A stretch of DNA of 64,000 bases from Fidelibacterota bacterium (GTDB taxonomy: Bacteria; Fidelibacterota; UBA8477; JABMPR01): assembly GCA_016784025.1 (NCBI GenBank), contig JADHVL010000006.1, forward strand, positions 13,859 to 77,858. Reading direction: 5' to 3'. This document shows positions 19,011 through 55,595 of this stretch, one piece after another. The notes below the pieces were generated by a model that ran no database searches, was not told where the DNA came from, and was given only the letters and a program-made list of their open reading frames with translations. A program made the translations under genes and the position numbers. Position 1 is the first letter of the stretch. The number at the start of each line of letters is the position of its first letter.

Positions 19011-19221
19011 ATAGTATAAAGCGCAACACGGGGTAATTCAAATTCAATATTTCCAAATATTAATGGCTGAAAAAATCAGATTTCAAATACATCCCTATGC
19101 TGATTATTGAAAACAAAATCAAAGGTGGTGGCTAATTGAAGGTGGTAGATCGATTAGAATTGTTCACATCTATCCTCAATTGGGGTTTTTCTCACCTCTA
19201 ATCCTTTTATCTTAATCGACT

Positions 19222-20989: not shown

Positions 20990-20993
20990 AACC

Positions 20994-28584: not shown

Positions 28585-31500
28585 ATGAGAAAAGCGAGTC
28601 TATTCCTTATCATGTTAGTCCTGGCATCCACTACCATGGCAGCAACCACCGGCAAAATTTCTGGAGAGGTGGTTGAGCAGACCACCGGTGAAGCCATGAT
28701 CGGCGTCAATATCATTGTTGAAGGAACCAGCCTTGGGGCGGTTACTGATATTACTGGTTATTACGTCATACTTAATGTTCCACCAGGATATCAAACTTTA
28801 AAAGCGACCATGATTGGCTATTCACAATACACCATTGAAGATATCCGCGTAGAAATAGATCGAACTCAAACCGTTAATATTGAAATGGCAGAACAGGTAC
28901 TTGAAGGTGAATCAGTTGTGATCGTCGCTGAACGCAAAGTAATAAAGATGGATGTGGCTGCCAGCCAGCGCAGTGTTACAGCTGAGGGGATAGAGGAGTT
29001 GCCAGTCACTAGTATTTCCGAAGTATTGACCCTTCAGGCTGGAGTGAGTGGTTTTTCTGTCAGGGGTGGTGGAACTGAAGAAACAGCTCTCATGATTGAT
29101 GGGATTGAGTTGAAAGATGAGAGAACCAATAAACCAATCACAGGCATTCCACTTAGCTCGGTACAAGAAATTTCGGTTCAAACCGGTGGCTTTAGTGCTG
29201 AATATGGAAACGTTCGATCTGGTGTGGTGAATGTAGTAACCAAGGACGGAAGTGGTGGTTACAGTGGAACCCTGACTATCAAGCATAGCGCCGCAGAACC
29301 AAAGCATTTCGGTATATCACCCTATGATGAAGACTCGTTCTATATGAGGCCCTATCTTGATGATGCCGTAGCCTGGACCGGTACTGAGGTTGGTGAAACC
29401 TATACTGACGCCAATAACAATGGATATTGGGATGAAGGCGAAACCTTTACCGATTTTAACGAAGATGGAGCATACACGGTCTGGGATAAATACACCCAAC
29501 GTCAATATCCTTCATTTGTGGGCTGGAATGCAGTTTCAGAAGCCACGCTGGCAAATGATGATCCCTCAGACGATTTAACACCCTCAGCGGCAAAAAGATT
29601 ATTTGAATGGCAGTATCGCAAACCTGGAAATATTGTCAATCCTGATATAAACATTGATGGTGGTTTTGGGGGACCAGTTCCAGTTATCGGTGAGGACCTG
29701 GGCAATTTGAGATTTTTTCTTTCCTATAGACAGGAGAACAGTGAATACCTCTATCCTGTCTCTGAAAGCGGAACCCTGTCCAGGACGACCTTGCTGAGAC
29801 TGACTTCTGATGTGGACAAAACCAAAAAATTAAACTTTACCTATATGGCTGGAAATCTTACTGCTACCACCTCATCCAGAGGTGGACTAACCAGTTATAT
29901 GTCCTCAGTATGGGATCTGGCATCACAGGTCAACCGTTCGGGTTTCACCATGCCCTGGAGATTGTACTCCAATGAATACTGGGCACCTACAGCCGTTTCA
30001 CATGCAACCTATTCTGCAAAATTCACGCACTTGCTCAGCTCTTCCTCCTATTATGAGATCATAGCAAAACACATAAAGAAACAATATGATACAGCTCCAG
30101 GTCCTGAGAGAAATCTAGACAAAGTCTATGAGATATTTGATGGTTATTTTGTGGATGAAGGTCCAGTAGGCTTCTATGGTACTCCTGTTAGTACTATCGA
30201 TGGTAATATGAATATGGGTGGTGCAGTAAGTACCTCCCGAGATCAGTCTGTGGTAAAAACCACTGCCATTAGTGGAGACTATGTAAATCAAGTAAACCAG
30301 AACAACCAAATCAAGGCTGGATTTGATTTTGTGTATGATGATCTGGAAATGGAATTTGGTTCATTGAACTACTTTTTACCTGAAGGAAATTATTGGTCGC
30401 GGATGTATTACACTCCATATCGATTTACCACCTACCTCCAGGATAAAATGGAGTTTGAGGGTTTTATCGCTTCCCTGGGTCTCAACGCCGAGCTTATCAG
30501 TCCCAATACCTCATGGTACAAGGTTGACCCCTATGATGAAAGTTTTTACTCCTCAAGCTATAGCCAGAGTGCAGAGGACAACTTTGAGAAAGAGGATGTG
30601 AAGACACGCTTTTACCTGAGTCCGCGCTTGGCAATCTCACATCCCATCACCATTAATTCAAAATTGTATTTCAACTATGGTCATTATCGACAAGTCCCAA
30701 CCACTGAAAGTCTATTTAGAGTGCAACGCAAGGTGGTTCTCAATGGCGATCGAGAAATCGAAGATCTCACCCAACTGTCAATTATTGGTGATCCTAATCT
30801 GGATCAAGCCAGGACCATTTCATATGAGTTGGGCTATGACCATGCCTTATTTGATGCCTATCTACTCCATCTTGCTGCTTACTATAAGGATATTACTGAT
30901 CAACAGGACTGGACCCGCTACATCAGTGCCAGCGGTCAGGTGAATTATAGCCACCTCACAGCAAACAGTTATGAGGATATCAGGGGGTTTGAAGCTGATA
31001 TATCCAAAATGGTGGGTGACTGGATTACTGGAAATGTAAACTTTGAATATCGCGTAAATACCTCAGGCTATTTTGGTGTAAAACAATATTATCAAAATCC
31101 CAGCGAGCAGAGGGACTATCTGAAAAACAATTCAGTACAGAGTAAGCCGCGACCGACCCCACGGGTTAAATCAGTGGTGGATTTTCACACTCCTCGCAAC
31201 TTTGGACCTACCATCTTCAGCCAAAAACCACTGGCCGAATGGCATCTTAATGTATTGAGCAGTTGGAGAGCCGGTTCCTGGTTTGAATACAATCCCAGAG
31301 GCATAGAAGGTATTGGTTACAATTTTAGATGGCAGGATTCAAAATCAGTGGATTTGAAGATATCCAAGATTTTCAAGGCAGGAAAAATGAGTATCAAGTT
31401 TTTTGCTGACATCAACAATGCCTTGAATCTTAAAATATTTAGTGGGTATGGTTTTGAAGATATTCATGACTATGACTTCTATTTAGGCTCCCTATTGCTT

Positions 31501-31851
31501 CCTCAAGACAAATTAGATGCCATCGGTGAACCCGTTTTCCCTGGTATTGAGCACAATGATAATCCAGGTGATGTGAGACCAGACGATGTCGCCTTTGTAC
31601 CCATTGAATGGATTGCTGATGTGGATAAGCTGTCTGCCGACGCACGGAGTGAGCGTGGTATTTATTATGATGCAGCCACTGAGACTTACCTGCAATTCAA
31701 TCACGTCGCTGGTTGGGAAGAAGTTGAATCGAGCTTTCTGGATGAAGTGGTTGAGAATAAGGCATATATCGATATGCCCAACCAGGGTTCGTTCATATTT
31801 CTTTCACCCCAGGACATCTTTTTGGGTCTAAATATTTCTTATGATTTCTAG
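28585..31851 (+). CDS. TonB-dependent receptor-like outer-membrane protein 1 (CarboxypepD_reg + Plug + large barrel; Oar/SusC-like architecture)
   Basis: 1088 aa with a signal peptide. 'GKISGEVVEQTTGEAMIGVNIIVEG...TDITGYYVILNVPPGYQTLKATMIGY' is CarboxypepD_reg-like. The TonB-box-like strand is 'ESVVIVAER'. Plug and early barrel: 'VRGGGTEETALMIDG', 'GGFSAEYGNVRSGVVNVVTK'. The C-terminal residue is F. Confidence 0.85.
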   Translation: MRKASLFLIMLVLASTTMAATTGKISGEVVEQTTGEAMIGVNIIVEGTSLGAVTDITGYYVILNVPPGYQTLKATMIGYSQYTIEDIRVEIDRTQTVNIEMAEQVLEGESVVIVAERKVIKMDVAASQRSVTAEGIEELPVTSISEVLTLQAGVSGFSVRGGGTEETALMIDGIELKDERTNKPITGIPLSSVQEISVQTGGFSAEYGNVRSGVVNVVTKDGSGGYSGTLTIKHSAAEPKHFGISPYDEDSFYMRPYLDDAVAWTGTEVGETYTDANNNGYWDEGETFTDFNEDGAYTVWDKYTQRQYPSFVGWNAVSEATLANDDPSDDLTPSAAKRLFEWQYRKPGNIVNPDINIDGGFGGPVPVIGEDLGNLRFFLSYRQENSEYLYPVSESGTLSRTTLLRLTSDVDKTKKLNFTYMAGNLTATTSSRGGLTSYMSSVWDLASQVNRSGFTMPWRLYSNEYWAPTAVSHATYSAKFTHLLSSSSYYEIIAKHIKKQYDTAPGPERNLDKVYEIFDGYFVDEGPVGFYGTPVSTIDGNMNMGGAVSTSRDQSVVKTTAISGDYVNQVNQNNQIKAGFDFVYDDLEMEFGSLNYFLPEGNYWSRMYYTPYRFTTYLQDKMEFEGFIASLGLNAELISPNTSWYKVDPYDESFYSSSYSQSAEDNFEKEDVKTRFYLSPRLAISHPITINSKLYFNYGHYRQVPTTESLFRVQRKVVLNGDREIEDLTQLSIIGDPNLDQARTISYELGYDHALFDAYLLHLAAYYKDITDQQDWTRYISASGQVNYSHLTANSYEDIRGFEADISKMVGDWITGNVNFEYRVNTSGYFGVKQYYQNPSEQRDYLKNNSVQSKPRPTPRVKSVVDFHTPRNFGPTIFSQKPLAEWHLNVLSSWRAGSWFEYNPRGIEGIGYNFRWQDSKSVDLKISKIFKAGKMSIKFFADINNALNLKIFSGYGFEDIHDYDFYLGSLLLPQDKLDAIGEPVFPGIEHNDNPGDVRPDDVAFVPIEWIADVDKLSADARSERGIYYDAATETYLQFNHVAGWEEVESSFLDEVVENKAYIDMPNQGSFIFLSPQDIFLGLNISYDF

Positions 31852-31865
31852 AAGAATGCAGATGC

Positions 31866-33971
31866 ATGAATAAGGACAATAAATTTATGATGGCTAATAA
31901 AATGAGAAGTAAGATTTATTGGAGGGCGCTTGGCATACTGGTCGGGATCGGTCTACTGGTAAATATTATATCTGCCGCCGAAAGCAAGTGGATTGCTGTA
32001 GGTAATTTGCATAACTGGTATTCTGAAGAGGGTAGCGAGGTTGAAGTTGGTCGTACTGGTCAAATACGGGATCAACAGGATGGTCTCCGTTGGCCGGCAC
32101 AATATAGCTTTCAAGATGCTCAAGCCGCCAAAGGCTTGTGGATTGGTACCACCAATTTTTTCGATTACCAGGTAAACAATGAATTTGATTTTAAAGTGGC
32201 TCATGTGGGTCCCCGTGGTCCAGTGGATGGTAAAACTGAGATCATGACCCAAACCTTTAAGATGTACGGTAAATATGATCATCCCGCAGTGTTTGTGGAT
32301 GGTGATCCAGCCAGTACGCTACAGTATCTGGATATTGTAGATAGTGTCGACGCTGCCATGATCGAGGATCGCAAAATCGTAAATATTATCAATACCTCCA
32401 CTGGTATAACAATGACACGGACCATTCGGGGATTCTCAAATCAAAATCATGATAACTACCATGTCTTTGATTATGTCTTTGAGAATACCGGTATTTATAG
32501 TGTAGACGGAAGTTCATTTAGTGAAACACTGACTGGTGTATACTTTGGATTGCAATATCGTTATGCTCCGACAAGGGAAAGTGGTCCCTACGGTGCTGGT
32601 GGATATTGGGCCCCTCAAAATACAGCCTGGGGCGCCAACACTATCAATGAAGTGATTGGAGAGAATCCCGCAGACGATGAAATTCGTGCGCTCTATTCAT
32701 GGCATGGATTGCATTCTCAGGCAGCCGATGGCCATGATAATATTGGTTCTCCATACTATGGTGATGGGGGAGATGGTCACCTCAGTGCTCAGCAATTTGT
32801 GGGAGTAGTCACCATCCATGCTGATAAATCTACTACTGACCAAAGCGATGACTTATATCAACCAACAACTACTTTATACACAGGTTCTGACGAACCCATT
32901 ACCCAAAGCAATGATCAATTCAATCCCGTCAAAATGCAGGCGAGATATAACCATATGGCTGCGGGTCATCCCCCTGAATCACATGCTGAAGCAGTTGGAG
33001 ACAGTTACGCAGACACCTGGGGAACCGATCCAGGTGGTTATTCACAGCTACATGCCTTTGGACCTTATGACATGGCTCCTGGAGAGAAAATCCATATTGT
33101 TCTGGCTGAAGCGGCTGCCGGAATTAGTCGAGATATGTGCTATGAGGTAGGTGGGAACTGGTTCGACGGTAATGTTGCAGTTGGCGACCTTTTAAATCCT
33201 GATGGATCAATCCCAGGTACTAAGGACGAATACAAGAATAAGTGGGTCTTTACTGGTGAGGATTCGCTTTTCCAGACATTTCACCGCGCCATCGATACTT
33301 ATGTTTCAGATTATGCGGTACCAGAACCACCACCACCGCCAGCTGAATTTACCGTGACCTCAGGCGGTGATCAAATTGGCCTCGCATGGGATTCAAACGC
33401 TGAGACCCATCCTGGATTTATGGGTTATAAAGTTTTTAGGGCGATTCACAAACCAGATACGACCTATGAGGAAATATTTTCCTGTGATGTGGATAACCTC
33501 ACCAATGAATTGGCCGATGTAAAAGCGAAGCGTGGTTTTAAATATTTCTACTATGTTGTGTCTTATGACGATGGAAATACGAATCAGGTATCTCCTGGTG
33601 CACCACTTTTCAGCAGCAAATTTTACACGATGACCAATAAGGGAGCCTCCCTTAAACGACCTGCCGGGGATCAACTCAGTCAGATTCGTGTGGTTCCTAA
33701 CCCATTTAATATCAAGTCGAAAAAACTCCAATTCAGTGAGTCTGGGGAAGACCGTCTATATTTTTATGACATCCCGGGTATATGTACCATTCGCATATAT
33801 ACCGAGCGTGGTGAATTGATAAAAACAATTGAACATACTGATAATAGTGGTGATGAGTCCTGGGATTCTATTACCGAATACAGGCAGGTTGTGGTGAGTG
33901 GAATATATATCGCTCATTTTGAAACACCTGATGGTCAATCAACGTTTCGCAAAATTATAATTATTCGCTAA
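31866..33971 (+). CDS. T9SS-CTD partner protein A1 (uncharacterised family; FN3-like module + C-terminal sorting domain)
   Basis: 701 aa with a signal peptide. It is a paralog of 38979-41081 (for example 'ITMTRTIRGFSNQNHDNYHVFDYVFENTG', 'FGPYDMAPGEKIHIVLAE'). The proline hinge 'PEPPPPPAEF' is followed by the FN3-like 'GYKVFRAIHKPDTTYEEI'. CTD: 'IRVVPNPFN...CTIRIYTERGELIKTI...VVVSGIYIAHFETPDGQS'. Confidence 0.7.
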   Translation: MNKDNKFMMANKMRSKIYWRALGILVGIGLLVNIISAAESKWIAVGNLHNWYSEEGSEVEVGRTGQIRDQQDGLRWPAQYSFQDAQAAKGLWIGTTNFFDYQVNNEFDFKVAHVGPRGPVDGKTEIMTQTFKMYGKYDHPAVFVDGDPASTLQYLDIVDSVDAAMIEDRKIVNIINTSTGITMTRTIRGFSNQNHDNYHVFDYVFENTGIYSVDGSSFSETLTGVYFGLQYRYAPTRESGPYGAGGYWAPQNTAWGANTINEVIGENPADDEIRALYSWHGLHSQAADGHDNIGSPYYGDGGDGHLSAQQFVGVVTIHADKSTTDQSDDLYQPTTTLYTGSDEPITQSNDQFNPVKMQARYNHMAAGHPPESHAEAVGDSYADTWGTDPGGYSQLHAFGPYDMAPGEKIHIVLAEAAAGISRDMCYEVGGNWFDGNVAVGDLLNPDGSIPGTKDEYKNKWVFTGEDSLFQTFHRAIDTYVSDYAVPEPPPPPAEFTVTSGGDQIGLAWDSNAETHPGFMGYKVFRAIHKPDTTYEEIFSCDVDNLTNELADVKAKRGFKYFYYVVSYDDGNTNQVSPGAPLFSSKFYTMTNKGASLKRPAGDQLSQIRVVPNPFNIKSKKLQFSESGEDRLYFYDIPGICTIRIYTERGELIKTIEHTDNSGDESWDSITEYRQVVVSGIYIAHFETPDGQSTFRKIIIIR

Positions 33972-33976
33972 AGGAT

Positions 33977-35008: not shown

Positions 35009-35010
35009 AA

Positions 35011-36018
35011 ATGAGTCTAAGAAATCATTATATGAACATTTTGAGAATCCTGCTCATCCTTCCTCTCCTCAATGGCGGTCTGGCCATGGCTCAGATAAAA
35101 TTGGCTCAGTCTGGTGCTCAATTTTTAAGTGTTGATTCTGATGCCAAGGCCGGAGGTATGGCTGGAGCATTGACCACGGTTGAATCTAATTCTGCTTCAA
35201 TTTTCTTCAATCCGGCGGGAATGGCCAGAATGAATCCCAGCATTGACTTGATGGCCAGTCAGAATCAGTGGTTTGCAGATATCGCCTACAACTCCTTCTC
35301 CGCTGCCTTTAAACCAGGAACCGGTGAATTTGGTGTATTCGGACTGTCCTTTGTTTCAGTTGACTACGGAGAAATTCAGGGAACTCAGCGTTGGGACAAT
35401 GATCTGGGATATAAAGATACTGAGATACTCACACCTTCAGCGTTTGCTGCTGGATTTGGTTATGCCAAGTCTCTCAACGATAAGTTTTCAGTTGGTGCTC
35501 ATGTCAAGTACATCGGTCTTAATTATGGCAAGAGTATTTACCCCGATGATGATGGCAATCCTGATACGGTCAAGTCTCATCTGGCTTTCGCCAATGCTTT
35601 TGATTTTGGAACCATCTATAGGACTGGATGGAAGACGCTGGCTTTTGGTATGTCTGTGAAAAATTTCTCAAATGAAGTGGTTTTCGAAAAGGAAGGCTTT
35701 CAACTACCCCTGACCTTCACACTTGGCATATCAATGGATGCCTTTGAATTGGTGAGAAATGTCATGGGCCAGCAGATCATGTTAGTAAGCCTGGATGTGC
35801 TGCATTATCGCTCACACGCAGAGCAACTCAGAATTGGTTTTGAATACAAACCTATCGATATGCTTGCTCTACGAGCGGGATACATGTCTGCCAATGATGA
35901 GAATGATATTTCATTTGGTCTCGGAATCCAGCAATTCGGTCTTGCCTTTGATTATGCTTATGAGCCCTTCGGGCGCTTAGGCGATGTACAACGGATGACT
36001 GTCAGATTCTCTCTGTAA
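35011..36018 (+). CDS. PorV/PorQ-like outer-membrane beta-barrel (copy 1)
   Basis: 335 aa with a signal peptide. 'SGAQFLSVDSDAKAGGMAGALTTVESNSASIFFNPAGMA' matches the PorV/PorQ N-terminal signature (D-A-R/K-A-x-G-M-G...NPAG). It has alternating beta-strand character and a 'FDYAYEPFGRLGDVQRMTVRFSL' terminus. It is a paralog of 60356-61396. Confidence 0.65.
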   Translation: MSLRNHYMNILRILLILPLLNGGLAMAQIKLAQSGAQFLSVDSDAKAGGMAGALTTVESNSASIFFNPAGMARMNPSIDLMASQNQWFADIAYNSFSAAFKPGTGEFGVFGLSFVSVDYGEIQGTQRWDNDLGYKDTEILTPSAFAAGFGYAKSLNDKFSVGAHVKYIGLNYGKSIYPDDDGNPDTVKSHLAFANAFDFGTIYRTGWKTLAFGMSVKNFSNEVVFEKEGFQLPLTFTLGISMDAFELVRNVMGQQIMLVSLDVLHYRSHAEQLRIGFEYKPIDMLALRAGYMSANDENDISFGLGIQQFGLAFDYAYEPFGRLGDVQRMTVRFSL

Positions 36019-36036
36019 TGTGAGTGGTGGGGAGTA

Positions 36037-38979
36037 ATGTCTAATCAGATAAGGCGCGGAGTGTTATTACTGCTCATTTGTGTGAGCACAATAATTTCAG
36101 CAACCACAGGTAAGATTAGTGGTCATGTCACTGATTCAGAAACAGGTGACCCCCTGATTGGCGTAAATATTTTCATCTCTAATCTAGGTACTGGTGCCGC
36201 CACAGATATTGATGGCTATTATGCTATTCTAAACATCCGTCCAGGTAAGCATGAATTGCGCGCATCCATGATTGGTTACGCTCCTTTGGTTATGCAGAAT
36301 GTGGATGTGGTGATGGGACTCACATCAACCATCGATTTATCTATGTCCTCTGAAATTCTGGGCATGGAAGCGGTCACAGTTATCAGTGAGAGACCCATTG
36401 TTGCCAAGGATTTATCAGGGAGTCAGTTAAACGTGGATTCAGAGTCAATCCAACAATGGCCCATTTCCTCGGTTACTGCTGTACTGGGTGTCCAGGCCGG
36501 TGTTGAAAATATGCAGGTCAGGGGAGGCTCGATTTCCCAGACTGCGGTTATGGTTGATGGCTTCCTATCTAACGACAGTCGCTCAAATGCACCTGTGACA
36601 ACCTTGAGTTTGAGCTCTGTAGAAGAGATTCAGGTTCAATCCGGTGGATTCAATGCCGAGTATGGCAACATCCGGTCTGGTATTGTTAACATTGTGACAG
36701 CCGAGGGTCCAGCAGATCATTACTCAGGATCCTTCTACTATCAGAATAGTCCCGCTGCTCCCAAACACTATGGCATATCGCCTTTTGATGAGGATTCATA
36801 TTTTATGCGCCCCTATCTGGATGACGATGTTGCCTGGACTGGAACTGGAAGTGGTGGCTGGGATACATATACTCAAGATCAGTATCCAGGCTTTGAAGGT
36901 TGGAATTCATATAACAATACAGAAACTGGAATGACTGCATCGGCAGCACAACAGGAATGGATTTATGAACATCGCAGGACTGGTGAAATTACCAAACCAG
37001 ATCAAACACTGGACTTTGGTTTTGGTGGTCCTGCTCCTGGAATCTCAAAGCTTAGATTTTATCTATCCATAAGAAGTGAAGAAGAGCAATTTATTGTTCC
37101 CTTGTCCAGAGATGGATATAGCTCTAACTCCAGCCGTCTAAAATTGAATTATGATTTGAGCACCAATCAGAAGCTGGTTGCCACATTGCTTTATTCAGAA
37201 GAGCACTCAGTAAACCAATACAACTGGACCACAGTGCCTGAGGGCAATCTTTTACGTGGAACCTATAGTGTGGCTAATCTGGTGACACCAACAGGGTTAT
37301 TTACGCCTGCTTATTATAGCCCCTACTCAATATTCCGAGGACGATTTGATGTGAGTTATAACCATATGCTGAGTTCTGACTCCTATTATGAAATAGTCTT
37401 CCAACATGGGCAAACCCAATACCAGACTTATGAGATGGGTGCTCGAGACACCACGAAACTTGAAATATTTCCAGGCTATTTCCATGATGAAGCACCTTAT
37501 GGTTACAATTCTGCCGATTGGATGAACCTGGGACGGGATACCAGTCACACCAGCTCCACACTCCTGAAAGCAGACTATACCGACCAGATCAATTCAAGCA
37601 ATCAGCTCAAGATGGGGGTACAGGCCAATTTTTATGACCTGCAGATAAGATCCTACACCGAAAGTGATAAGGATACCTGGTCCAGGACCATGAACTATGA
37701 TGTAACTCCCATCAGGTTAAGTGCTTATGTTCAGGACAAACTTGAGTTTGAGGGATTCATTGCAAACCTGGGTCTTCGTGCAGAATATTCATCAGCCAAC
37801 ACCGATGTGTATGAACTGGATGCCTATGATGATCTTTTTAAACAAGGGCTGGGTAGTAATCTCGAGGAATTAGCAGAAAAACAAAATGCAAAATCCACAT
37901 TTACGCTAAGTCCAAGATTGGGAATTTCCCATCCCATAACCGATCATTCCAAATTGTATTTCAATTATGGACATTTTTACTCCGAAGCGGGTTCCACCTA
38001 CCGGTTCAGACTTCAGAGAGAATCCAACGGATTGGTCACCAATCTTGGTAACCCTGAACTGGAACAGGAGCGAACCATTGCCTATGAGTTGGGCTATTCA
38101 CATGGATTTAGTAACACATACATACTCGATTTAGCCACCTACTATAAAGACATTACACAACAACCGGGCTGGGTGATTTATAAGAATGCCACTGGCTCAG
38201 TCCACTATCGTAAGGCAGAAAGCAATAACTATCAGGATATTCGTGGTATTGAAGTCACGCTTAGTAAGCCCAAGGGTCGCATATTCTCAGGATTTATCAA
38301 TTATACCTATATGGTAAAGACCAGTGGCTATTTTGGACTGTTACGTCAGTTTCAGAATCCCCAGGAACAGCGAGATTATGAAAATCTCAACGTCGTGGAT
38401 AGCAAACCCAGAGCCCAACCCTATTTTCGTGCAAATCTTTCCATGAAAACTCCTCATAAATTTGGACCGTCTTTGGCTGGTATGCACCCCGCAGAAAGAT
38501 TTGAACTTAGTTTCCTGGCCAGCCACAAAACGGGAAGCCAATTTATTTATAATACTCCTGAGGCAGGGGATGTCTATGTCCAATGGTTGTCTCGATGGGA
38601 TGTGGATTTGCGTATTCAGAGATCCATTTCTGTAGGTGGTTCGTCTCTGGTGGCATTTTGTGATATTGCCAATCTCTTTGACCACAAATATTTGAGCTAT
38701 AGTGGCTTTTCAGATCAATTTGACTATGCTGATTATCTCACCTCTCTCAACTTTTCCTTCGAAGAGGGCATAAATCATGGGGATGATTATGTCGGTGCAT
38801 ATCGTGAAGATGATATAGCATATGAGGCTCTCGTGCCAAATCCTGATAATGATCCCCAAATTGCTGCAGACAATGAGCGCCGGCGGGAAACTAAATCATA
38901 CATCGATATGCCCAACTATCGATCTCTTACTTTCTTAAACCCCCGTAAATTCACTTTCGGGTTGAGGTTTAATTTCTGA
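36037..38979 (+). CDS. TonB-dependent receptor-like outer-membrane protein 2 (close paralog of receptor 1)
   Basis: 980 aa. 'GKISGHVTDSETGDPLIGVNIFIS', TonB-box-like 'EAVTVISER', and 'GGFNAEYGNIRSGIVNIVT...PKHYGISPFDEDSYFMRPYLDDDVAWTGT', which is collinear with receptor 1. It ends '...GLRFNF'. Confidence 0.85.
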   Translation: MSNQIRRGVLLLLICVSTIISATTGKISGHVTDSETGDPLIGVNIFISNLGTGAATDIDGYYAILNIRPGKHELRASMIGYAPLVMQNVDVVMGLTSTIDLSMSSEILGMEAVTVISERPIVAKDLSGSQLNVDSESIQQWPISSVTAVLGVQAGVENMQVRGGSISQTAVMVDGFLSNDSRSNAPVTTLSLSSVEEIQVQSGGFNAEYGNIRSGIVNIVTAEGPADHYSGSFYYQNSPAAPKHYGISPFDEDSYFMRPYLDDDVAWTGTGSGGWDTYTQDQYPGFEGWNSYNNTETGMTASAAQQEWIYEHRRTGEITKPDQTLDFGFGGPAPGISKLRFYLSIRSEEEQFIVPLSRDGYSSNSSRLKLNYDLSTNQKLVATLLYSEEHSVNQYNWTTVPEGNLLRGTYSVANLVTPTGLFTPAYYSPYSIFRGRFDVSYNHMLSSDSYYEIVFQHGQTQYQTYEMGARDTTKLEIFPGYFHDEAPYGYNSADWMNLGRDTSHTSSTLLKADYTDQINSSNQLKMGVQANFYDLQIRSYTESDKDTWSRTMNYDVTPIRLSAYVQDKLEFEGFIANLGLRAEYSSANTDVYELDAYDDLFKQGLGSNLEELAEKQNAKSTFTLSPRLGISHPITDHSKLYFNYGHFYSEAGSTYRFRLQRESNGLVTNLGNPELEQERTIAYELGYSHGFSNTYILDLATYYKDITQQPGWVIYKNATGSVHYRKAESNNYQDIRGIEVTLSKPKGRIFSGFINYTYMVKTSGYFGLLRQFQNPQEQRDYENLNVVDSKPRAQPYFRANLSMKTPHKFGPSLAGMHPAERFELSFLASHKTGSQFIYNTPEAGDVYVQWLSRWDVDLRIQRSISVGGSSLVAFCDIANLFDHKYLSYSGFSDQFDYADYLTSLNFSFEEGINHGDDYVGAYREDDIAYEALVPNPDNDPQIAADNERRRETKSYIDMPNYRSLTFLNPRKFTFGLRFNF

Positions 38980-41081
38980 TGAATCGAATTTATATCAAAA
39001 ACCTACTGTTTTTGGCGATACTGATTCTCATTGGTGCAAATGTTTATGGACAGGTCGATGCTGCCACCAAGAGATATGTGAGGGTTGGAACTCTCCAGAG
39101 TCATTTCTCGGCCTATGGTGCTGAAAGAGCATGGAATAATTCCTACTATGAAGGTCTCATCTGGCCGGCTGATTATCCCTATCAAGACAATGCTGTAATC
39201 AAACGAGCCTGGGCTGGAGTTAAGGATTTTAGAGATCCCAGAGGTGTCTTCTGGCCCTATTATGGTATCTATTATACTCTCGCAGCAGCAGAGACTGGAT
39301 TGTTCCCAATGGAGCTGACCCAGACTGCCAAATTTAGACCTCCAGATGTGTTTGTTGATGGTAATGATTTACGAGTCATCTATGCTGGTGAAATCGATAG
39401 TATTGATCCAGACCAGGTTGCTGATCGGGTGATTAATAACGTTGTCAATTCTTCCATGGGATTGACCATGACCCGTAAAGTCTATGCCTTCAGTCAGCAG
39501 TATCATGATAACTATTTCATCAAGGAATTTACTTTCACAAATACAGGAAATACCAATAGTGACGATGTGATTGAATTGAATGATACTCTAAGGGGTGTTC
39601 GATTTGGTTGGGGTACTCGTTATTCTGGTGGACGTGAAGCGAGCTGGACCATCGGCGATGGTCAAAGTTATGGCAAACATTCCTGGGTTACCCGCCGTGG
39701 TGAGAATTATCCCCAGCATTACACTGAGGAGATTACGCCGGCAAATCCCATTGTAGATTGGCTGAGAGCCGGATTCTCCTGGGCTGGTCAGGGAGAAAAC
39801 AACGCCTTTGATAATCTGGGTGGACCTGATATGACTGCAACTGGTCGCCTGACTTCACCTCATCATGTGGGCTCTATTGCCATTCATGTAGATAGATCTG
39901 CCAGCGACAGTCAGGATTGGATCTATCAACCCGCCTTTTTAGGGTGGCATGCAGGGGACACCTATCCTCAGGTTGGTGATCAACGCCTTGAAGATGCTCC
40001 CAAAATGAAAAGTTTGTATGAGATGCTGAGTGGCATTCCATTTGGTGCAAATAAGGGCGCCCAGACCCGAATGGATGAAGTCTTCGGAGATTTCTTCGAT
40101 GATGCCTACAAGGTTCACAATGATGGGGGAGGCACAAATGTCATGTTGACCTATGGTCCCTTTGATCTTGGACCAGGTGAAAGTGTCACCATTGTGGAAG
40201 CTGAAGGAATCAACGGACTGAATCGTCAGATGTGCGAAATGATAGGCGAGCGGTGGAAACAAGCCTATGACACCCCTGGTGATAATGGACCTTTTCTATT
40301 GCCTAATGGCGACGAAACTGGAAATCTGAATCAATACAAAAATACCTGGGTCGAGACGGGAAAAGATTCTTTGATGTTGACTTTTGGAAGAGCCAAAAGA
40401 AACTGGGATGCGAATTTTCAGATTCCTCAACCTCCGCTGCCACCCAGCAGTTTTTCCGTTGAATCAGGGGGGGACAGGATTTATACAAGCTGGTTGCCCA
40501 GTGCCTCGGAATCAGATCCTGATTTTGGCGGATATCGACTTTTTCGCGCTATCGGAAAACCAGACACGACCTATGAAGAAATTTATGCCTGCGGCTTTGG
40601 CACCGATAATGCGCTAAGTTACTATTATGATGACATTTCACCTGTGAGGGGTCAGGAGTATTACTATTACCTGGTTGCCTTTGATGATGGGACTGAGAAT
40701 AACACCAATCTCAATCCGTCAGGCTCGCTCCACAGCAGTCGTTTTTATACCAGGACTACCGAAGGCGCAACACTCCAACGGAGACCCGGTACACTAAATG
40801 ATATTCGGGTTGTACCCAACCCATTCAACATCCATCAGGAAACCTTTATTGGTAGCCCAGATAAACTGGCATTTTTTGATGTTCCCGGTCACTGTACCAT
40901 TCGGATCTATACCGAAAGGGGAGATCTTATCAAAACCATCGATCATAGCAATGGTAGTGGTACAGAATACTGGTGGTTGAACACAGATCAACGACAGGTT
41001 GTTGTGAGTGGCATATATATAGCACATTTTGAGACGCCAGATGGACAATCTGCGTTTAAGAAATTTATAATTGTACGTTAG
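38979..41081 (+). CDS. T9SS-CTD partner protein A2 (paralog of 31866-33971)
   Basis: 700 aa with a signal peptide. The start overlaps the receptor stop (TGATG). 'LTMTRKVYAFSQQYHDNYFIKEFTFTNTG', 'YGPFDLGPGESVTIVEAE', 'PQPPLPPSSF...GYRLFRAIGKPDTTYEEI'. CTD: 'IRVVPNPFN...CTIRIYTERGDLIKTI...VVVSGIYIAHFETPDGQS'. Confidence 0.7.
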   Translation: MNRIYIKNLLFLAILILIGANVYGQVDAATKRYVRVGTLQSHFSAYGAERAWNNSYYEGLIWPADYPYQDNAVIKRAWAGVKDFRDPRGVFWPYYGIYYTLAAAETGLFPMELTQTAKFRPPDVFVDGNDLRVIYAGEIDSIDPDQVADRVINNVVNSSMGLTMTRKVYAFSQQYHDNYFIKEFTFTNTGNTNSDDVIELNDTLRGVRFGWGTRYSGGREASWTIGDGQSYGKHSWVTRRGENYPQHYTEEITPANPIVDWLRAGFSWAGQGENNAFDNLGGPDMTATGRLTSPHHVGSIAIHVDRSASDSQDWIYQPAFLGWHAGDTYPQVGDQRLEDAPKMKSLYEMLSGIPFGANKGAQTRMDEVFGDFFDDAYKVHNDGGGTNVMLTYGPFDLGPGESVTIVEAEGINGLNRQMCEMIGERWKQAYDTPGDNGPFLLPNGDETGNLNQYKNTWVETGKDSLMLTFGRAKRNWDANFQIPQPPLPPSSFSVESGGDRIYTSWLPSASESDPDFGGYRLFRAIGKPDTTYEEIYACGFGTDNALSYYYDDISPVRGQEYYYYLVAFDDGTENNTNLNPSGSLHSSRFYTRTTEGATLQRRPGTLNDIRVVPNPFNIHQETFIGSPDKLAFFDVPGHCTIRIYTERGDLIKTIDHSNGSGTEYWWLNTDQRQVVVSGIYIAHFETPDGQSAFKKFIIVR

Positions 41082-41100
41082 TCATCGGAGGTAACGTATT

Positions 41101-42354: not shown

Positions 42355-42458
42355 AGAAATTAGATATAATTAACAAAGATGTGCTATAAAGCAATGAATG
42401 TGAACTCACATAAATTATCTTTAGGCACAAAAAAAGACACAAGAAGAAGGAGAAAGAC

Positions 42459-43865
42459 ATGAGAAAAATGCTACCCGTACTGGTCGTATTTCTGACACTG
42501 AGCAGTGCTCTGTTCGGTGGTTGGGAGTTTGATGATGTTGTGGTTTCTTACCCTGAGCTAGAGGTCTCAGATGGTTGGGGTATTCACAGCGTCGTTGTTG
42601 ACAATAGTGGAAACATCTGGTATACCATGTATGGTGTTACCACAGGAAGCTACTACCCAACTGCCACTGATACTGTAAATGCCATTGGTATCCATGCAGT
42701 AACAGCAGCAGGTGTCCCCCTTTCATTTTCACCCATCGATTTTGTGACCGTGGGTGGCGTGACAGATACATTGACAGTTTCTTGTCGGGGTATGGCCAGA
42801 GCCCATGATGGAAACATCCTGGTTGCACTTGGTAATGGTGCCCTGTATAAGATTAATGCTACTGATGGTACCGGTATGGCAAAATATGAGCATCCAGATG
42901 GATCCTCATTGACCAAACCTGCTGTTGATGCTGCCGGAAATATTTATATCGGTCGTGTAAGTTCAAACTATCCAGTTAAAATGTTGAACTCAGATCTGGT
43001 ATTTCAGACTGATGTTGTAACAGCATTTCCAAAAATCAATAGAGCTATCGCAGTTTCCCCTGATGGAACAGATCTCTATTTTGGAAGTACCTGGACTGGT
43101 GGGGGAGTTTACAAGTATCATAGTGATGCACCTGGTATTTTGCCCCATGAGCCAGACTTGACTACTCCAGTAATTGGTAACTGGGAGCCAGAAGGTGTCA
43201 TGGATACAACCATCACCATTTCCAATGATACAACCATCATTGGCACTGATACTACCATTGTTGTGGTAAGTGATACAAGTATTACTCAGCATGTGGACTA
43301 TCTCTGGGCTGAGGATGTAACCTTAGGTCCTGACGGTAATATTTATGCTGCAAACACTCAGATAAATTTTACTGGTGACGAGGAGCATGGATCACTGTGG
43401 TATGTCTACGATACTGATGGAAATGAACTTTATTCCATAGGTATACAGCAGGGTGATTATCTGCAGGGTGGTGTCTACAATGGTCGTGGAGCAGCCTGGA
43501 ATGCAGATGGAACTGTTATGTATCTGGCTGAATGGGGCTACAATTGTATCTCTGTTTGGAATCTAAACCCTGAGGGTGTAGATCCTGCCATCACAGTTCC
43601 AAGTGCACACACTTTAGCGCAGAACTACCCCAATCCATTTAATCCTTCAACCAACATACCTTTCGAGCTACATCAGGATGGTTTAGTTGAGTTGACAGTA
43701 TTTGATGTGAATGGTCGTGAAGTTGCAACACTACTGAACGAACATCTGAATGTTGGAATTCACACTGCACAGTTTAACGGATCAGATCTGAGCTCAGGTC
43801 TTTATATCTATCAATTATCCTTTAACGGAGAAGTGAGTGCAAAGAATATGTTGCTTGTAAAATAA
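42459..43865 (+). CDS. Beta-propeller (NHL/SMP-30-like) protein with T9SS type-A C-terminal sorting domain
   Basis: 468 aa with a signal peptide. Blades include 'DNSGNIWYT', 'DGNILVALGNGALYKI', 'DAAGNIYIG', 'SPDGTDLYFG', 'GPDGNIYAAN' and 'DGTVMYLAE'. CTD: 'LAQNYPNPFNPSTNIPFEL...LTVFDVNGREV...SGLYIYQL...MLLVK'. Confidence 0.7.
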   Translation: MRKMLPVLVVFLTLSSALFGGWEFDDVVVSYPELEVSDGWGIHSVVVDNSGNIWYTMYGVTTGSYYPTATDTVNAIGIHAVTAAGVPLSFSPIDFVTVGGVTDTLTVSCRGMARAHDGNILVALGNGALYKINATDGTGMAKYEHPDGSSLTKPAVDAAGNIYIGRVSSNYPVKMLNSDLVFQTDVVTAFPKINRAIAVSPDGTDLYFGSTWTGGGVYKYHSDAPGILPHEPDLTTPVIGNWEPEGVMDTTITISNDTTIIGTDTTIVVVSDTSITQHVDYLWAEDVTLGPDGNIYAANTQINFTGDEEHGSLWYVYDTDGNELYSIGIQQGDYLQGGVYNGRGAAWNADGTVMYLAEWGYNCISVWNLNPEGVDPAITVPSAHTLAQNYPNPFNPSTNIPFELHQDGLVELTVFDVNGREVATLLNEHLNVGIHTAQFNGSDLSSGLYIYQLSFNGEVSAKNMLLVK

Positions 43866-43890
43866 GAGCAATCTATTGTTTCTTAAAAAA

Positions 43891-43915
43891 GGGCGAGTGT
43901 TTACTCGCCCTTTTT
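43891..43915 (+). terminator. Rho-independent terminator ending the 28585-43865 gene string
   Basis: gggcgagt-gttt-actcgccc stem-loop followed by TTTTT. Confidence 0.8.
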
Positions 43916-44033
43916 ATTATTGACTGTAATTGTCCAATTTAAACTCAATTCTCTCATAGTTAGTATGCTAAATTTACTTACTTAAAGTGCATTCATGCTT
44001 ATCTTCATGGAGATTTATTAAAGGGAGGAAGAC

Positions 44034-47000
44034 ATGCGGTTAAAAACAATTGGTATTGTGCTACTATTATTGGTTTCAATGGTTTGGGCTCAAACCGATA
44101 ACGAAGAGTTCCGAGCAACCTGGGTCATCACCTGGGAACACATAAGCGCAGGTAGCAGCGTCGAACAAAATCAGGCTCGCATACGGACTATCATGGACAA
44201 CCATTTAGCCGCGAACATGAGCAGCGTGTTGTTCCAGGCACGACAGAGCGGAACAGCCTACTACAACTCATCTTATGAACCCTGGGGTGCCTATGCAGGC
44301 GGTTCTTCCCCTGGATATGATCCCCTTGAATACGCCATTGAGCAAGCTCATGCGAGAGGATTGGAATTGCATGCCTGGTTCAATTGTTTTCAGGCGGCCT
44401 CCACAGTGCCAGGAGCACCAGCAGCCGAGCATCCAGATTGGGTATGTCGCGATGAGGGCGGAGCACCCATGCCAGCATATAGAGCCCTTTCACCAGGCAT
44501 GCCTGAGGTAAGGGAGTATCTGGTTGATGTCGCTATGGAAATCGTCAACAACTATGATGTCGATGGATTACACCTGGATTATGTTCGTTGGAATGAGTAT
44601 GACAATCTACTTTTAAACTCAGTTTCTCCTACAAGCCTGGAAGAAGTCAGCACGCTGGACCAGGAAACGGATTACAGCCATATCGGATCATTGAGGGACA
44701 GTCAATCTGGTCGCTATCTATATGATATAGATCATCCATACAATGGAGGTGTGCCAGCGGGATTCGATTCATGGCCTGATTTCTGGAGATCATCAGTAAC
44801 CGATTTCGTCCATTCACTCCACGATTCAATGCAGACTCAAAAACCATGGGTAAGACTCTCCGTTGCAGCTTTGGGGAAATACAACTGGAGCGGTTGGAAT
44901 GGATATAATGTTGTCTACCAAGACGCTGCCTTATGGTTTAATGAAGGCTATATCGATCAATTAACTCCCATGCATTATCACTGGACAACATCCTCAGGAT
45001 TTGTGGGTATGCTCACCGATGACAGTCCCTATTGCTGGGGTGACTATATTCAACCTGGCGTAAATGCCGGTCGACTTTTCTCAGTAGGTCCTGGCTCCTA
45101 TATTCTGGATCAAAACAATATCTGGAACAGACATGCCAGTATCGTCAATATCTCACGCTCTGTAAGCTGGGTAGATGGATTTCAATTTTTCTCTTATGGT
45201 AGTTGGCAAGATTATCAATATTGGCCAACTGCTGGAAGTAGTTTTTTCAGCAAAAAAACCAAGATTCGTGGGAATGGACTGTTTGTAGACGAAACGCCTC
45301 CCACACCTGCCATCGCTTTGGATATCGTTGATTCTCTCACATTCGATCTCACGGTTACGCCTGACAATACGGCAACTGGTGACTATTGGTGGGCATTGTA
45401 CAGATCACAGTCTGATGACATCATGGTAACGTCAAGTGATATTGTCGGTGTCTATTTCGGATCTGAAGCCTTTACAGTTACAGAGGAATTCGACGGTACT
45501 CAGGATGAAAACACCAGCTATTTTTATAGCGCCACCATGCTGGATCGTTATTGGAATGAGTCTGAGTTAGCAACGGCGGTTGAAACAAGCCAGCTACCAT
45601 CATTGCCACCTGTTTTGACCAGTGTTTATCCTGCTCAGGATGATACTGTGGAGGTAAGTACGCTGCTCACAATCCAGTTCTCAAAAACAATGGATGTTGC
45701 CTCGGTTGAATCATCTCTCAGTTTTAGTCCAGAAATTGCCATTGATCACTATACCTGGACTGAAGGTGATCATAGAATAATAATTTATCCGGATACTAAC
45801 TTTGCTTATATGAGCAGTTATACCATGACCCTTACTGATGCTGCCATGGATATCAATGGCTCAGCTTTAGATGGGGATGCTGATGGTACAGCCGGGGGAG
45901 ATATCATCATCACCTTTCACACCAAAGCCCTGGATGAGGCTGGTCCCACAGTGCTGTATAGCACACCAGAAATCAATGTAGGTACAGAATCATTTGATGT
46001 GGATGGCAATATCTCATTGGTTTTTGATGAGATGTTGAACTCCTCAACGGTCAATCTGGAATCTATTCATTTAGAAGAAGGTGGAACTCCCATAGAGGTA
46101 GATTATTTATTATCTACTGCTCATGGAAAATCAGTATTGGATATCAAGCCATACAGCAGAATTGGTGCAGCCAGTGATTATCTGCTCACCCTGGATTCCA
46201 CGCTGGCTGATGCTCTGGGAAATACTGTTGATGCACAGATTCTGATTCCCTTTTCAACTGCAAATGAACACTATTCCACCATAAACTACATCGATAGTTT
46301 TACCTTTACAAATGAATGGTGGGATCCAGAAGGAAGTGGATCAACCGTTGGAACCATTGGTTCAACCACCAACTGGGGGTATTCAACCTCTATTTATCTG
46401 CCTGGCACAAGCACAGTTCAGTCACAAAAAAGGGCTGGCTTTATCAATTATGAATGGGATTTGGCCTCTGGTAGTCATTTATTACGTGAGTATATGCCCA
46501 GCGGTGGACCGCGTAACGTCATATTTGACAATACCTATATCATGCAGTGTTATGTCTATGGCGACGGCAGCAATAATAAATTCAGATTTGCTATTGATGA
46601 AGGCGATGGAACGGATTGGCCCGCTCATGAAGTCTCTGTCTGGTTTGACATCGATTGGGAGGGCTGGAGATTGCTTGAATGGGATTTCACGGATCCCTCC
46701 ATGGTGGGCAATTGGATTGGCAATGGCACTCTGGATGGTCAAGCCTATCGTGTGGATAGCTTTCAAATGACCTATAATTCAGAATCAGGTGCCACTTCCG
46801 GTCGTATCTATCTGGATAATTTTAGAGTTGTGAAGAAGATGCCAGGTGTTTCCATTGATGATGAACTTCCCGAGCTCCCACAGACAGTCAGTCTGCATCA
46901 GAACTATCCCAATCCCTTTAATCCTGAGACGGTGATTAGCTTCGACTTGCCTTCAAGCATGGAGGTAGAGGTATCTGTTTTTGATATTCGAGGTCGGGAA

Positions 47001-47144
47001 TTGGAAATTCTGGTCAACGATAATCTTCCGGCTGGAAGGCATACGCTTCATTTTAATGGAAGTGATTTCGCTGCAGGCGTGTATATGGTTGTCCTGGAAA
47101 CCCAATTTGGCACCCAGGCCAAACGGATGCTATTGCTCAAATAA
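44034..47144 (+). CDS. T9SS-targeted multidomain protein: GHL10 (glycosyl-hydrolase-like 10 / DUF187) domain + 2 SbsA/Big_5-like Ig domains + jelly-roll (CBM-like) domain + CTD
   Basis: 1036 aa with a signal peptide. 'FRATWVITW...VLFQARQSGTAYYNSSYEPW...GYDPLEYAIEQAHARGLELHAWFN...DGLHLDYVRW' is GHL10-like. 'PPVLTSVYPAQDDTVEVS...' and 'GPTVLYSTPEINVG...' are Ig-like. CTD: 'LHQNYPNPFNPETVISFDL...VSVFDIRGRE...AGVYMVVL...MLLLK'. Confidence 0.7.
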   Translation: MRLKTIGIVLLLLVSMVWAQTDNEEFRATWVITWEHISAGSSVEQNQARIRTIMDNHLAANMSSVLFQARQSGTAYYNSSYEPWGAYAGGSSPGYDPLEYAIEQAHARGLELHAWFNCFQAASTVPGAPAAEHPDWVCRDEGGAPMPAYRALSPGMPEVREYLVDVAMEIVNNYDVDGLHLDYVRWNEYDNLLLNSVSPTSLEEVSTLDQETDYSHIGSLRDSQSGRYLYDIDHPYNGGVPAGFDSWPDFWRSSVTDFVHSLHDSMQTQKPWVRLSVAALGKYNWSGWNGYNVVYQDAALWFNEGYIDQLTPMHYHWTTSSGFVGMLTDDSPYCWGDYIQPGVNAGRLFSVGPGSYILDQNNIWNRHASIVNISRSVSWVDGFQFFSYGSWQDYQYWPTAGSSFFSKKTKIRGNGLFVDETPPTPAIALDIVDSLTFDLTVTPDNTATGDYWWALYRSQSDDIMVTSSDIVGVYFGSEAFTVTEEFDGTQDENTSYFYSATMLDRYWNESELATAVETSQLPSLPPVLTSVYPAQDDTVEVSTLLTIQFSKTMDVASVESSLSFSPEIAIDHYTWTEGDHRIIIYPDTNFAYMSSYTMTLTDAAMDINGSALDGDADGTAGGDIIITFHTKALDEAGPTVLYSTPEINVGTESFDVDGNISLVFDEMLNSSTVNLESIHLEEGGTPIEVDYLLSTAHGKSVLDIKPYSRIGAASDYLLTLDSTLADALGNTVDAQILIPFSTANEHYSTINYIDSFTFTNEWWDPEGSGSTVGTIGSTTNWGYSTSIYLPGTSTVQSQKRAGFINYEWDLASGSHLLREYMPSGGPRNVIFDNTYIMQCYVYGDGSNNKFRFAIDEGDGTDWPAHEVSVWFDIDWEGWRLLEWDFTDPSMVGNWIGNGTLDGQAYRVDSFQMTYNSESGATSGRIYLDNFRVVKKMPGVSIDDELPELPQTVSLHQNYPNPFNPETVISFDLPSSMEVEVSVFDIRGRELEILVNDNLPAGRHTLHFNGSDFAAGVYMVVLETQFGTQAKRMLLLK

Positions 47145-47172
47145 AAATTTGAGTCTATTAGCACTTCTCATT

Positions 47173-47201
47173 AGCACCCGAATTTATTCGGGTGCTTTTT
47201 T
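47173..47201 (+). terminator. Rho-independent terminator after the GHL10 gene
   Basis: agcacccgaa-ttta-ttcgggtgct perfect 10-bp stem followed by TTTTT. Confidence 0.85.
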
Positions 47202-55582: not shown

Positions 55583-55595
55583 GAAGGTGTTGAAT

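Follow-up and report, generated by a model that had tools for sequence, protein, structure and literature searches.

PorV is the general carrier of type A C-terminal domains (CTDs) in type IX secretion systems (T9SS), docks into SprA/Sov, and is usually encoded by a single gene copy beside porU. PorZ has two beta-propellers and a CTD that is retained. In the T9SS attachment complex of Porphyromonas gingivalis, PorQ, a barrel of the PorV/PorQ family, holds PorZ by its uncleaved CTD (PMC10202324). PorZ (with PorQ) and type B CTDs (with PorP/SprF) have cognate carrier barrels, established or proposed (PMC10202324, PMC10994853, PMC12618676). Genes of PorP/SprF-like shuttles lie beside those of type B cargos, and the shuttles are needed for secretion of the cargo and then anchor it; one such shuttle is able to serve several related CTDs (PMC12618676). 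BamG, a FadL-like barrel of the Bacteroidota BAM complex, docks a surface lipoprotein with its extracellular loops (PMC12578637). As an idea, cargo-specific PorV-like barrels are already in the literature. Here, we describe two PorV/PorQ-family barrels, A and B, encoded in a 64,000-nucleotide stretch of a Fidelibacterota genome (contig JADHVL010000006.1, positions 13,859 to 77,858; hereafter, the window) in cassettes with a TonB-dependent receptor (TBDR) and a partner protein that ends in an atypical CTD (aCTD). We suggest, with a probability of about one half, that the barrel is a dedicated carrier and tether of the aCTD partner, which would act at the cell surface with its TBDR.

Two Barrels of the PorV/PorQ Family

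The barrels are encoded at two positions of the window.

35011..36018, + strand: barrel A, outer-membrane beta-barrel of the PorV/PorQ family, 335 amino acids (aa)
60356..61396, + strand: barrel B, beta-barrel of the PorV/PorQ family, 346 aa from an ATG (348 aa from a TTG at 60350)

A first-pass annotation, made from the sequence alone, had described the two as paralogs with the N-terminal signature of PorV/PorQ and a common terminus, and both points stand. The signature reads DAKAGGMAG...NPAGMA in barrel A and GSRATGMGEA...NPAGIA in barrel B, both proteins end in FDYAY..FGRL..VQR, and they are paralogous over their full length (BLASTP E 5e-35, 29% identity; 34% in a MAFFT alignment). Family membership is also borne out. 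The NCBIfam model of the PorV/PorQ family (NF033709, cutoff 90 bits) matches both at full length, with 176.8 bits for barrel A and 203.3 bits for barrel B, and barrel B also passes the Pfam model PF19572 PorV (34.7 bits, cutoff 27). Their nearest database proteins are labelled "PorV/PorQ family protein [Ca. Marinimicrobia]", and their only sequence relative in the PDB is PorV of Flavobacterium johnsoniae. In searches with models of other barrels, FadL/Toluene_X (PF03349, gathering score 29.7 bits) scores 26.3 bits in barrel A, below threshold, and has no match in barrel B; neither barrel matches the PorP/SprF family (TIGR03519) at E 0.01 or better.

The barrels belong to the PorV/PorQ family yet are not orthologs of PorV, PorQ, or PorV2, as judged by NCBIfam equivalog cutoffs, which we used in place of a phylogeny with bona fide PorV and PorQ. 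Barrels A and B score 68 and 65 bits with the PorV model (NF033710, cutoff 250), 62.7 and 88.6 bits with the PorQ model (NF033711, cutoff 220), and 46.9 and 82.4 bits with the PorV2 model (NF052325, cutoff 325). An AlphaFold2 model of barrel A, built from 39 homologs (mean predicted confidence, pLDDT, of 82), shows a barrel of the FadL type and an N-terminal hatch. The top Foldseek matches of this model are two structures of F. johnsoniae PorV, 8gl6_F (E 1.8e-14) and 6h3i_F (E 1.1e-11), with template modeling (TM) scores of 0.68–0.69; FadL (TM 0.57) and BamG (TM 0.45–0.48) rank behind them. Like F. johnsoniae PorV (6H3I, 8GL6), the cassette barrels have the hatch and an NPAG signature, but they are ∼60 residues shorter, occur in multiple copies, are bound to cassettes, and have no porU seen next to them. 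We interpret barrels A and B as members of a distinct, cassette-linked subfamily of PorV/PorQ (FadL-like) outer-membrane barrels.

After the predicted signal peptidase I (SPase I) site, the mature N-terminus is Gln in barrel A (AMA/QIK, the slash marking the site) and barrel B (SFG/QYK), as well as in two proteins introduced below, partner P2 (VYG/QVD) and the GHL10 protein (VWA/QTD). This resembles the 'Q-rule' of Bacteroidetes, which has been described as specific to that phylum and not common to the whole Fibrobacteres–Chlorobi–Bacteroidetes (FCB) group (PMC5837995).

Organization of the Cassettes

As the first-pass annotation had it, each barrel is encoded at the 3' end of a cassette. The order is TBDR, aCTD partner, a lipoprotein in some cassettes, and the barrel last; all cassette genes are on the + strand and are separated by gaps of -1 to 19 bp. 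The features of the cassettes, other than the barrels, and of the genes that continue the first two cassettes are as follows.

28585..31851, + strand: TBDR1 of cassette 1, 1088 aa; signal peptide, CarboxypepD_reg-like domain, Plug, and a barrel ending ...YDF (PF13715, PF13620, PF07715)
31866..33971, + strand: partner P1 of cassette 1, 701 aa
33977..35008, + strand: accessory lipoprotein of cassette 1, 343 aa; lipobox LISC read from the sequence; no Pfam or NCBIfam match
36037..38979, + strand: TBDR2 of cassette 2, 980 aa; Pfam CarboxypepD_reg and Plug
38979..41081, + strand: partner P2 of cassette 2, 700 aa, paralog of P1
41101..42354, + strand: TIG/IPT-domain lipoprotein of cassette 2, 417 aa (PF01833); lipobox LIAC read from the sequence
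42459..43865, + strand: SGL-like protein with canonical type A CTD, 468 aa (TIGR04183 40.2 bits, cutoff 23; PF08450)
44034..47144, + strand: GHL10 glycoside-hydrolase-like protein with Big_5 and canonical type A CTD, 1036 aa (PF02638, PF13205, PF18962)
47173..47196, + strand: strong terminator-like hairpin that closes the nine-gene block, a 10-bp stem followed by a T-run
52019..55582, + strand: TBDR3 of cassette 3, 1187 aa (PF00593, PF07715, PF13715)
55587..60344, + strand: partner P3 of cassette 3, 1585 aa, with barrel B next
61525..64000, + strand: TBDR4, truncated where the window ends; opens cassette 4 and starts 128 bp after barrel B

From TBDR1 to the GHL10 protein, nine genes form a tightly packed block (28585-47196) that includes barrel A and the two canonical type A cargos. 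Cassette 4 continues beyond the window in a stretch (L015) of contig JADHUN010000006.1, from the Candidatus Marinimicrobia metagenome-assembled genome (MAG) GCA_016784505.1. There, positions 11170-20366 encode a TBDR of 1115 aa, a partner of 1594 aa with an aCTD like that of P3 (B-type), and a PorV-family barrel of 346 aa. At least three PorV-family paralogs therewith lie in ∼45 kb of contig, each last in a TBDR/partner cassette. No core T9SS gene is found among window open reading frames (ORFs) of at least 100–120 aa, in agreement with the first-pass annotation.

The arrangement invites comparison to SusC/SusD (RagA/RagB). In both, a TBDR with CarboxypepD_reg-like and Plug domains is followed by the gene of a partner, and the locus includes accessory lipoproteins and secreted glycoside-hydrolase-like enzymes. 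However, while the cassette TBDRs have the architecture of SusC/RagA (CarboxypepD_reg, Plug, and barrel), three of them score only 65.2, 51.8, and 67.9 bits with the SusC/RagA model (TIGR04056, cutoff 368), mainly in the N-terminal region. The cassette partner is neither SusD nor a lipoprotein; instead, it comes with a T9SS-type CTD and a PorV-family barrel.

Partners and Their Atypical C-Terminal Domain

The partners have a predicted SPase I signal peptide and no lipobox, which makes the T9SS the obvious route to the surface. P1 consists of a signal peptide, a beta-rich N-terminal domain of ∼440 aa, a PPPPP linker, an FN3 domain, and the aCTD (aa ∼604-701, nucleotides ∼33675-33968). Pfam has no match in P1, and none of the partners matches SusD. 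In the AlphaFold2 model of P1 (pLDDT 86), a seven-strand beta-sandwich lies at the very C-terminus, and its Foldseek matches are limited to FN3 tandems and, weakly, the N-terminal sandwich of GH94. We rejected two candidate identities of P1. It is not SusD-like, for its fold is beta-rich with FN3 and a CTD rather than tetratricopeptide repeats and it has no lipobox, and it is not PorZ-like, for it has a beta-sandwich and FN3 but no propeller. P3 has a signal peptide, a large passenger with an FN3-like segment, and a B-type aCTD ending ...GKFAVIK. Ahead of this CTD are faint matches to propeller models (Reg_prop PF07494 and PorZ_N PF21544), and P3 has no sequence match in the PDB. With P1, it has only the FN3-like segment and the aCTD (37% identical, E 3e-16) in common. 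P1 and P2 are 68.5% identical in the CTD versus 40.7% in the passenger.

We use aCTD for the C-terminal ∼95 aa of the partners. Its pattern is VVPNPF/Y ... CTIRIYT ... G(I/V)YI ... (R/K)KF(I/V)(I/V)(I/V)(R/K). The first-pass annotation had set these tails apart from the canonical tails of other cargos, and the distinction is confirmed: three other cargos in the window, encoded at 42459, 44034, and 48900, bear QNYPNPFNP tails that pass TIGR04183, and hidden Markov models (HMMs) cleanly separate the aCTD from canonical CTDs of the same loci. By eye, the aCTD retains type A hallmarks, namely VPNP[FY], GxYxY, and a basic C-terminal ...K/R. Its scores are just under the cutoff of TIGR04183 (23 bits; P1 21.3, P2 19.0, P3 19.7) and under that of PF18962 (27 bits; 18.3). 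All other family matches are to T9SS tails, that is, PF18962, CHU_C (weak), and the C-terminus of PorZ, with no match to a type B family. The C-terminal part of the PorZ model NF052228 matches with E 3.6e-4 (P1) and 1.3e-3, and the closest solved structure is the CTD of PorZ (5m11_A, E 0.11), a statistically marginal resemblance.

Scores below cutoff, together with the clean separation from canonical CTDs, could also mean that the aCTD is an Ig-like or FlgD-like interaction module rather than a secretion signal. On that view, the partners would act in the periplasm as accessories to the TBDR, with linkage of the barrel owing to something else. We regard this as highly improbable. Three type A motif positions and the seven-strand sandwich are right at the C-terminus, family matches are limited to models of T9SS CTDs (PF18962, CHU_C, TIGR04183, and the PorZ tail), and the aCTD co-occurs with canonical T9SS cargos and, except in stretches L062, L063, and L082, with a PorV/PorQ-family barrel.

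The combination of barrel and partner resembles that of PorQ and PorZ in some respects. The nearest solved and NCBIfam relative of the aCTD is the CTD of PorZ (marginally so), PorQ is the top-scoring ortholog-level model for barrel B, and P3 has the faint propeller signals. It differs in that neither barrel is a PorQ ortholog (63–89 bits against a cutoff of 220) and P1 lacks a propeller. Moreover, barrel and partner here lie beside a TBDR, in several copies per genome and in phyla other than Bacteroidota, and there are often two partners per barrel.

Conservation of the Module across Phyla

The P1 family has 710 homologs, the best 120 of which are at least 48% identical to P1. Members are in Marinimicrobia, KSB1, Fidelibacterota, WOR-3, Calditrichota, Melioribacteraceae, and Stahlbacteria. 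A scan with an alignment of the aCTD found at least 586 aCTD-encoding stretches in GTDB species genomes, including those of Marinimicrobia, Melioribacteraceae, Calditrichota, and KSB1. We annotated the 78 best of these loci with HMMs built from the window proteins. A TBDR is directly upstream of 86 of 90 evaluable aCTD proteins. A barrel is downstream of 64 of 91, in 32 cases directly and in 32 after one small gene. The remaining 27 are mostly second partners in barrel-containing tandem arrays (TCVTC or TCTCV, with T for TBDR, C for aCTD protein, and V for barrel) or are cut by contig ends. An accessory lipoprotein is present in about half of related cassettes (32 of 64 partner–barrel pairs) and varies in length from 190 to 350 aa. 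The TBDR is the invariant third member of the module, which makes nutrient uptake the likely biology; the first-pass annotation underplayed both this receptor and the two canonical type A cargos in the block.

Barrels of other genomes conform to the same family. All 70 cassette barrels match NF033709, and none comes near the PorV, PorQ, or PorV2 cutoffs; the best E-values among them are 1.8e-28 with the PorV model and 8.9e-32 with the PorQ model. Weak matches to TIGR03519 (9 of 70), BamG (6 of 70), and FilD (8 of 70) also occur. In locus L001, an A-type cassette barrel (16279-17277) carries a precomputed weak match to the Pfam family PorP_SprF. In sequence, the cassette subfamily may be intermediate between PorV/PorQ and PorP/SprF.

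Gene order of the block is conserved as well. The succession TBDR, partner, (small protein), barrel, TBDR, partner, TIG lipoprotein, SGL-CTD, GHL10-CTD recurs in Marinimicrobia and Melioribacteraceae. The TIG lipoprotein keeps its position in L004, L007, and L009, and the GHL10-CTD protein is kept in L004 and L009. In Calditrichota, the same genes are rearranged such that SGL-CTD comes before the second TBDR and partner. Homologs of barrel B (∼50% identity) are found in Gemmatimonadota and three further MAGs. In every evaluable case, they are preceded by a TBDR and a partner of 663–1508 aa with no Pfam match. In the three loci checked with the aCTD HMM (L095-L097), the partner ends in the B-type aCTD ...GKFAVIK; in L099, the order TBDR, partner, barrel is the same (gene order only). 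Passengers of the B-type (663–1600 aa) share little with P1 beyond the FN3-like segment.

Given the canonical type A cargos of this conserved locus, barrel A might have the role of general shuttle, instead of or in addition to a cassette-specific one. It could be the PorV ortholog of these non-Bacteroidota phyla, encoded in an ancient locus and scoring low with models trained on Bacteroidota, with B-type barrels as specialized offshoots. Genomes have about one A-type barrel each, in the deeply conserved nine-gene block with its two canonical type A cargos; its scores with the PorV and PorQ models are similar (68 vs. 63 bits), PorV is its top structural match, and no second PorV candidate was seen in the ∼20 kb inspected per genome. 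However, in six loci (L001, L025, L055, L061, L067, and L079), a single array includes two A-type barrels, and an aCTD partner precedes each of them. The barrel always follows directly on an aCTD partner or the small lipoprotein that goes with it and does not adjoin canonical cargos, neither porU nor sprA was seen near the barrels in the gene tables of related loci inspected (again, ∼20 kb per genome), and B-type paralogs show that cassette-wise specialization occurs in the family. We consider a role of barrel A as general type A shuttle clearly unlikely.

Two of the related loci have neighbors of interest. In L009 (Melioribacteraceae), the stretch ahead of the conserved locus (2743-6548) encodes a sensor kinase (Reg_prop, Y_Y_Y, HisKA_3) and, separately, a GerE-type response regulator, an arrangement like that of Bacteroidota polysaccharide utilization loci. 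In L097, the B-type cassette is flanked (1-2169 and 17221-21038) by genes for GH18/GH85-CTD, NamZ, S66 LD-carboxypeptidase, and S13 peptidase. These neighbors hint that some cassettes import peptidoglycan-derived substrates.

Pairing of Barrels and C-Terminal Domains

Subtypes of adjacent CTDs and barrels match in all 81 pairs (74 A-A, 7 B-B, and none mixed). A-type and B-type cassettes are whole-cassette paralogs, so descent predicts this concordance just as function does, and duplication history alone could account for it. CTDs of P1 and P2 are 64% identical compared with 42% for their passengers, and the CTD is the more alike in 32 of 32 other genomes. Identity between CTDs of P1 and P2 is also slightly higher within a genome than between genomes (64.0% vs. 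60.3%; 21 of 30), a pattern that passengers lack. We rejected the conservation of the CTD relative to the passenger as a special argument, given that the canonical CTD of SGL orthologs shows an equal excess (50% vs. 41%). Mirror-tree comparison with partial Mantel tests gave a partial r(V,C given P) of 0.23 for barrel (V) and CTD (C) (permutation p 0.001). We discarded this result as evidence of barrel–CTD co-evolution, as it is no stronger than that for TBDR and CTD (r(T,C given P) 0.25).

Divergence of the barrel correlates best with that of the TBDR (r 0.70). This fits a role outside the T9SS, in which the barrel is a FadL-type channel for uptake of a small or hydrophobic product set free at the receptor, or a docking subunit like BamG, and was recruited to the TBDR complex independently of CTD recognition. 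The FadL-superfamily fold with its NPA(G) hatch motif, the sub-threshold Toluene_X score, the structural matches to FadL and BamG, the weak BamG and FilD hits among cassette barrels, and the way in which extracellular loops of BamG hold a surface lipoprotein (PMC12578637) all point in the same direction. BamG and the cassette barrels would also have in common the use of a FadL-superfamily barrel as a docking platform for a surface-exposed protein. Nevertheless, likeness to FadL and BamG is far weaker than that to the PorV/PorQ model, which describes all 70 barrels best, and the partners of BamG are BamA and BamH, not CTD proteins. Furthermore, partners that are otherwise unrelated have a T9SS-like CTD as their one common feature, and its subtype matches that of the barrel. 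Such a role outside the T9SS is therefore possible but unlikely.

Proposed Mechanism

The constancy of TBDR, aCTD, and barrel amid unrelated passengers, together with published cases of cognate carrier barrels, leads us to propose that the barrel is a dedicated carrier and tether. The partner encoded next to the TBDR would be exported by Sec, as its predicted signal peptide alone suggests. The divergent, type-A-like aCTD would then route it through the type IX translocon. In a third step, the cognate barrel, rather than a general PorV shuttle, would carry the partner and subsequently tether it non-covalently at the cell surface via the uncleaved CTD. This step is modelled on PorQ holding PorZ and on PorP/SprF barrels holding type B cargos. 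Finally, the tethered partner would be a surface-exposed substrate-capture subunit of the adjacent TBDR, and so a functional analog of SusD and of the surface glycan-binding lipoproteins of Bacteroidota. One A-type barrel could serve two paralogous partners, such as P1 and P2, and B-type barrels would serve partners with a B-type aCTD. Binding of the CTD by the barrel, retention of the CTD, surface location of the partner, and cooperation with the receptor are what we infer from the makeup and recurrence of the module.

The closest parallel in organization is with PorP/SprF barrels of F. johnsoniae (SprF-SprB, Fjoh_3951-Fjoh_3952, and Fjoh_1677). There too, the gene of the cognate barrel adjoins that of the cargo, several pairs occur per genome, and the barrel is carrier and anchor, as we propose for cassette barrels. 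The barrels belong to another family, however, with TIGR03519 only a weak match in 9 of 70 cassette barrels. In addition, the cassette CTD is type-A-like and not type B, and the third member of the cassette is a TBDR, not PorE or gliding machinery.

Several observations weigh against the proposal of a dedicated carrier and tether. The ratio of partners to barrels departs from 1:1: cassette 2 lacks a barrel, in many other loci, too, a partner has none to itself, two partners per barrel are frequent, and no barrel is within the fetched stretch of L062, L063, or L082. The aCTD falls under the cutoffs of TIGR04183 and PF18962, and its resemblance to the PorZ CTD is marginal. The excess of CTD over passenger identity is matched by canonical CTDs of SGL orthologs, barrel–CTD covariation is not specific as the TBDR covaries with the CTD to the same degree, and barrel divergence follows the TBDR best. 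Subtypes of barrel and CTD belong to cassettes that are paralogs as wholes, and barrel A could serve the two canonical type A cargos of the conserved locus too. Consistent with the proposal, though weaker than the recurrence of the module, are the (marginal) resemblance of the aCTD to the PorZ CTD, the likeness of P1 and P2 CTDs, and the likeness of CTDs within a genome.

The first-pass annotation had interpreted the extra barrel copies as cargo-specific anchors for the atypical CTDs. Its core gains from the finding that the barrels are not PorV, PorQ, or PorV2 orthologs, that several are present per genome, that linkage to the aCTD spans phyla, and that subtypes match in 81 of 81 pairs. Its one-to-one scheme does not hold, for a barrel often has two partners and cassette 2 lacks a barrel.

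Other Genes in the Window

The remaining genes in the window are housekeeping genes, including those for GroEL, PolA, RimO, FtsY, and TatC. Scans of the window for sigma-70 promoters returned matches at chance level and are uninformative for this phylum; the sole notable signal is the terminator at 47173. A 994-aa protein (8134-11118, - strand) is a fusion of a GH3/NagZ-like beta-N-acetylhexosaminidase and a PBP4B/AmpH-like domain of the beta-lactamase fold. Its gene adjoins those for an alternative GlmU and a NagC/ROK regulator (11148-12365, - strand; 12660-13910, + strand). The cluster at 8134-13910 looks like one for recycling of amino sugars or murein fragments, and it merits attention in that exogenous muropeptides sustain a cultured member of the phylum (PMC11652737). 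Other observations concern a FISUMP-domain protein (539-1816, + strand; Fibrobacter succinogenes major paralogous domain, TIGR02145, 108.6 bits), a DUF92/TIGR00297 membrane protein with an extra N-terminal half of ∼250 aa that has no family match (47212-48726, - strand), and a 243-aa ORF with no Pfam or NCBIfam match (13931-14662, - strand).

Implications for Nutrient Uptake and Type IX Secretion

In the literature on Marinimicrobia, Calditrichaeota, Ignavibacteria, Melioribacter, and Fidelibacterota in connection with TonB, T9SS, or PorV, we found no description of this module. Likewise, among the papers searched, we found none that links a PorV/PorQ subfamily with its own CTD class and TBDR cassettes across several non-Bacteroidota phyla. 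Judging by where the recovered MAGs came from and how they are titled, Marinimicrobia (SAR406) and related lineages are widespread in ocean and sediments. To our knowledge, how the TBDRs of these lineages capture polymers without SusD-type lipoproteins is unexplained. Tentatively, and with more doubt than attaches to the carrier role itself, the module could be the way in which FCB-related phyla outside Bacteroidota (including Marinimicrobia/SAR406, Calditrichota, Ignavibacteriota, and KSB1), together with Gemmatimonadota, place a substrate-capture subunit at the cell surface beside their receptors. It would then be a T9SS-dependent counterpart of SusCD, and PorQ-PorZ would be a specialized relative of an older carrier–cargo system.

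If the barrels are indeed dedicated carriers and tethers, type IX secretion and TonB-dependent uptake, which are usually studied apart, become linked, and a third class of CTD carrier would stand beside type A/PorV and type B/PorP-SprF. A function would be assigned to a partner family with no Pfam match (710 homologs; at least 586 aCTD genes in GTDB species genomes), and the combination of aCTD, barrel, and TBDR would provide an annotation rule for uptake loci in uncultured phyla. The findings suggest that many non-Bacteroidota bacteria use the T9SS for tethering a surface partner to nutrient receptors, and they may bear on the evolution of PorQ and PorZ and on the choice that the T9SS makes between cleavage and retention of the CTD.

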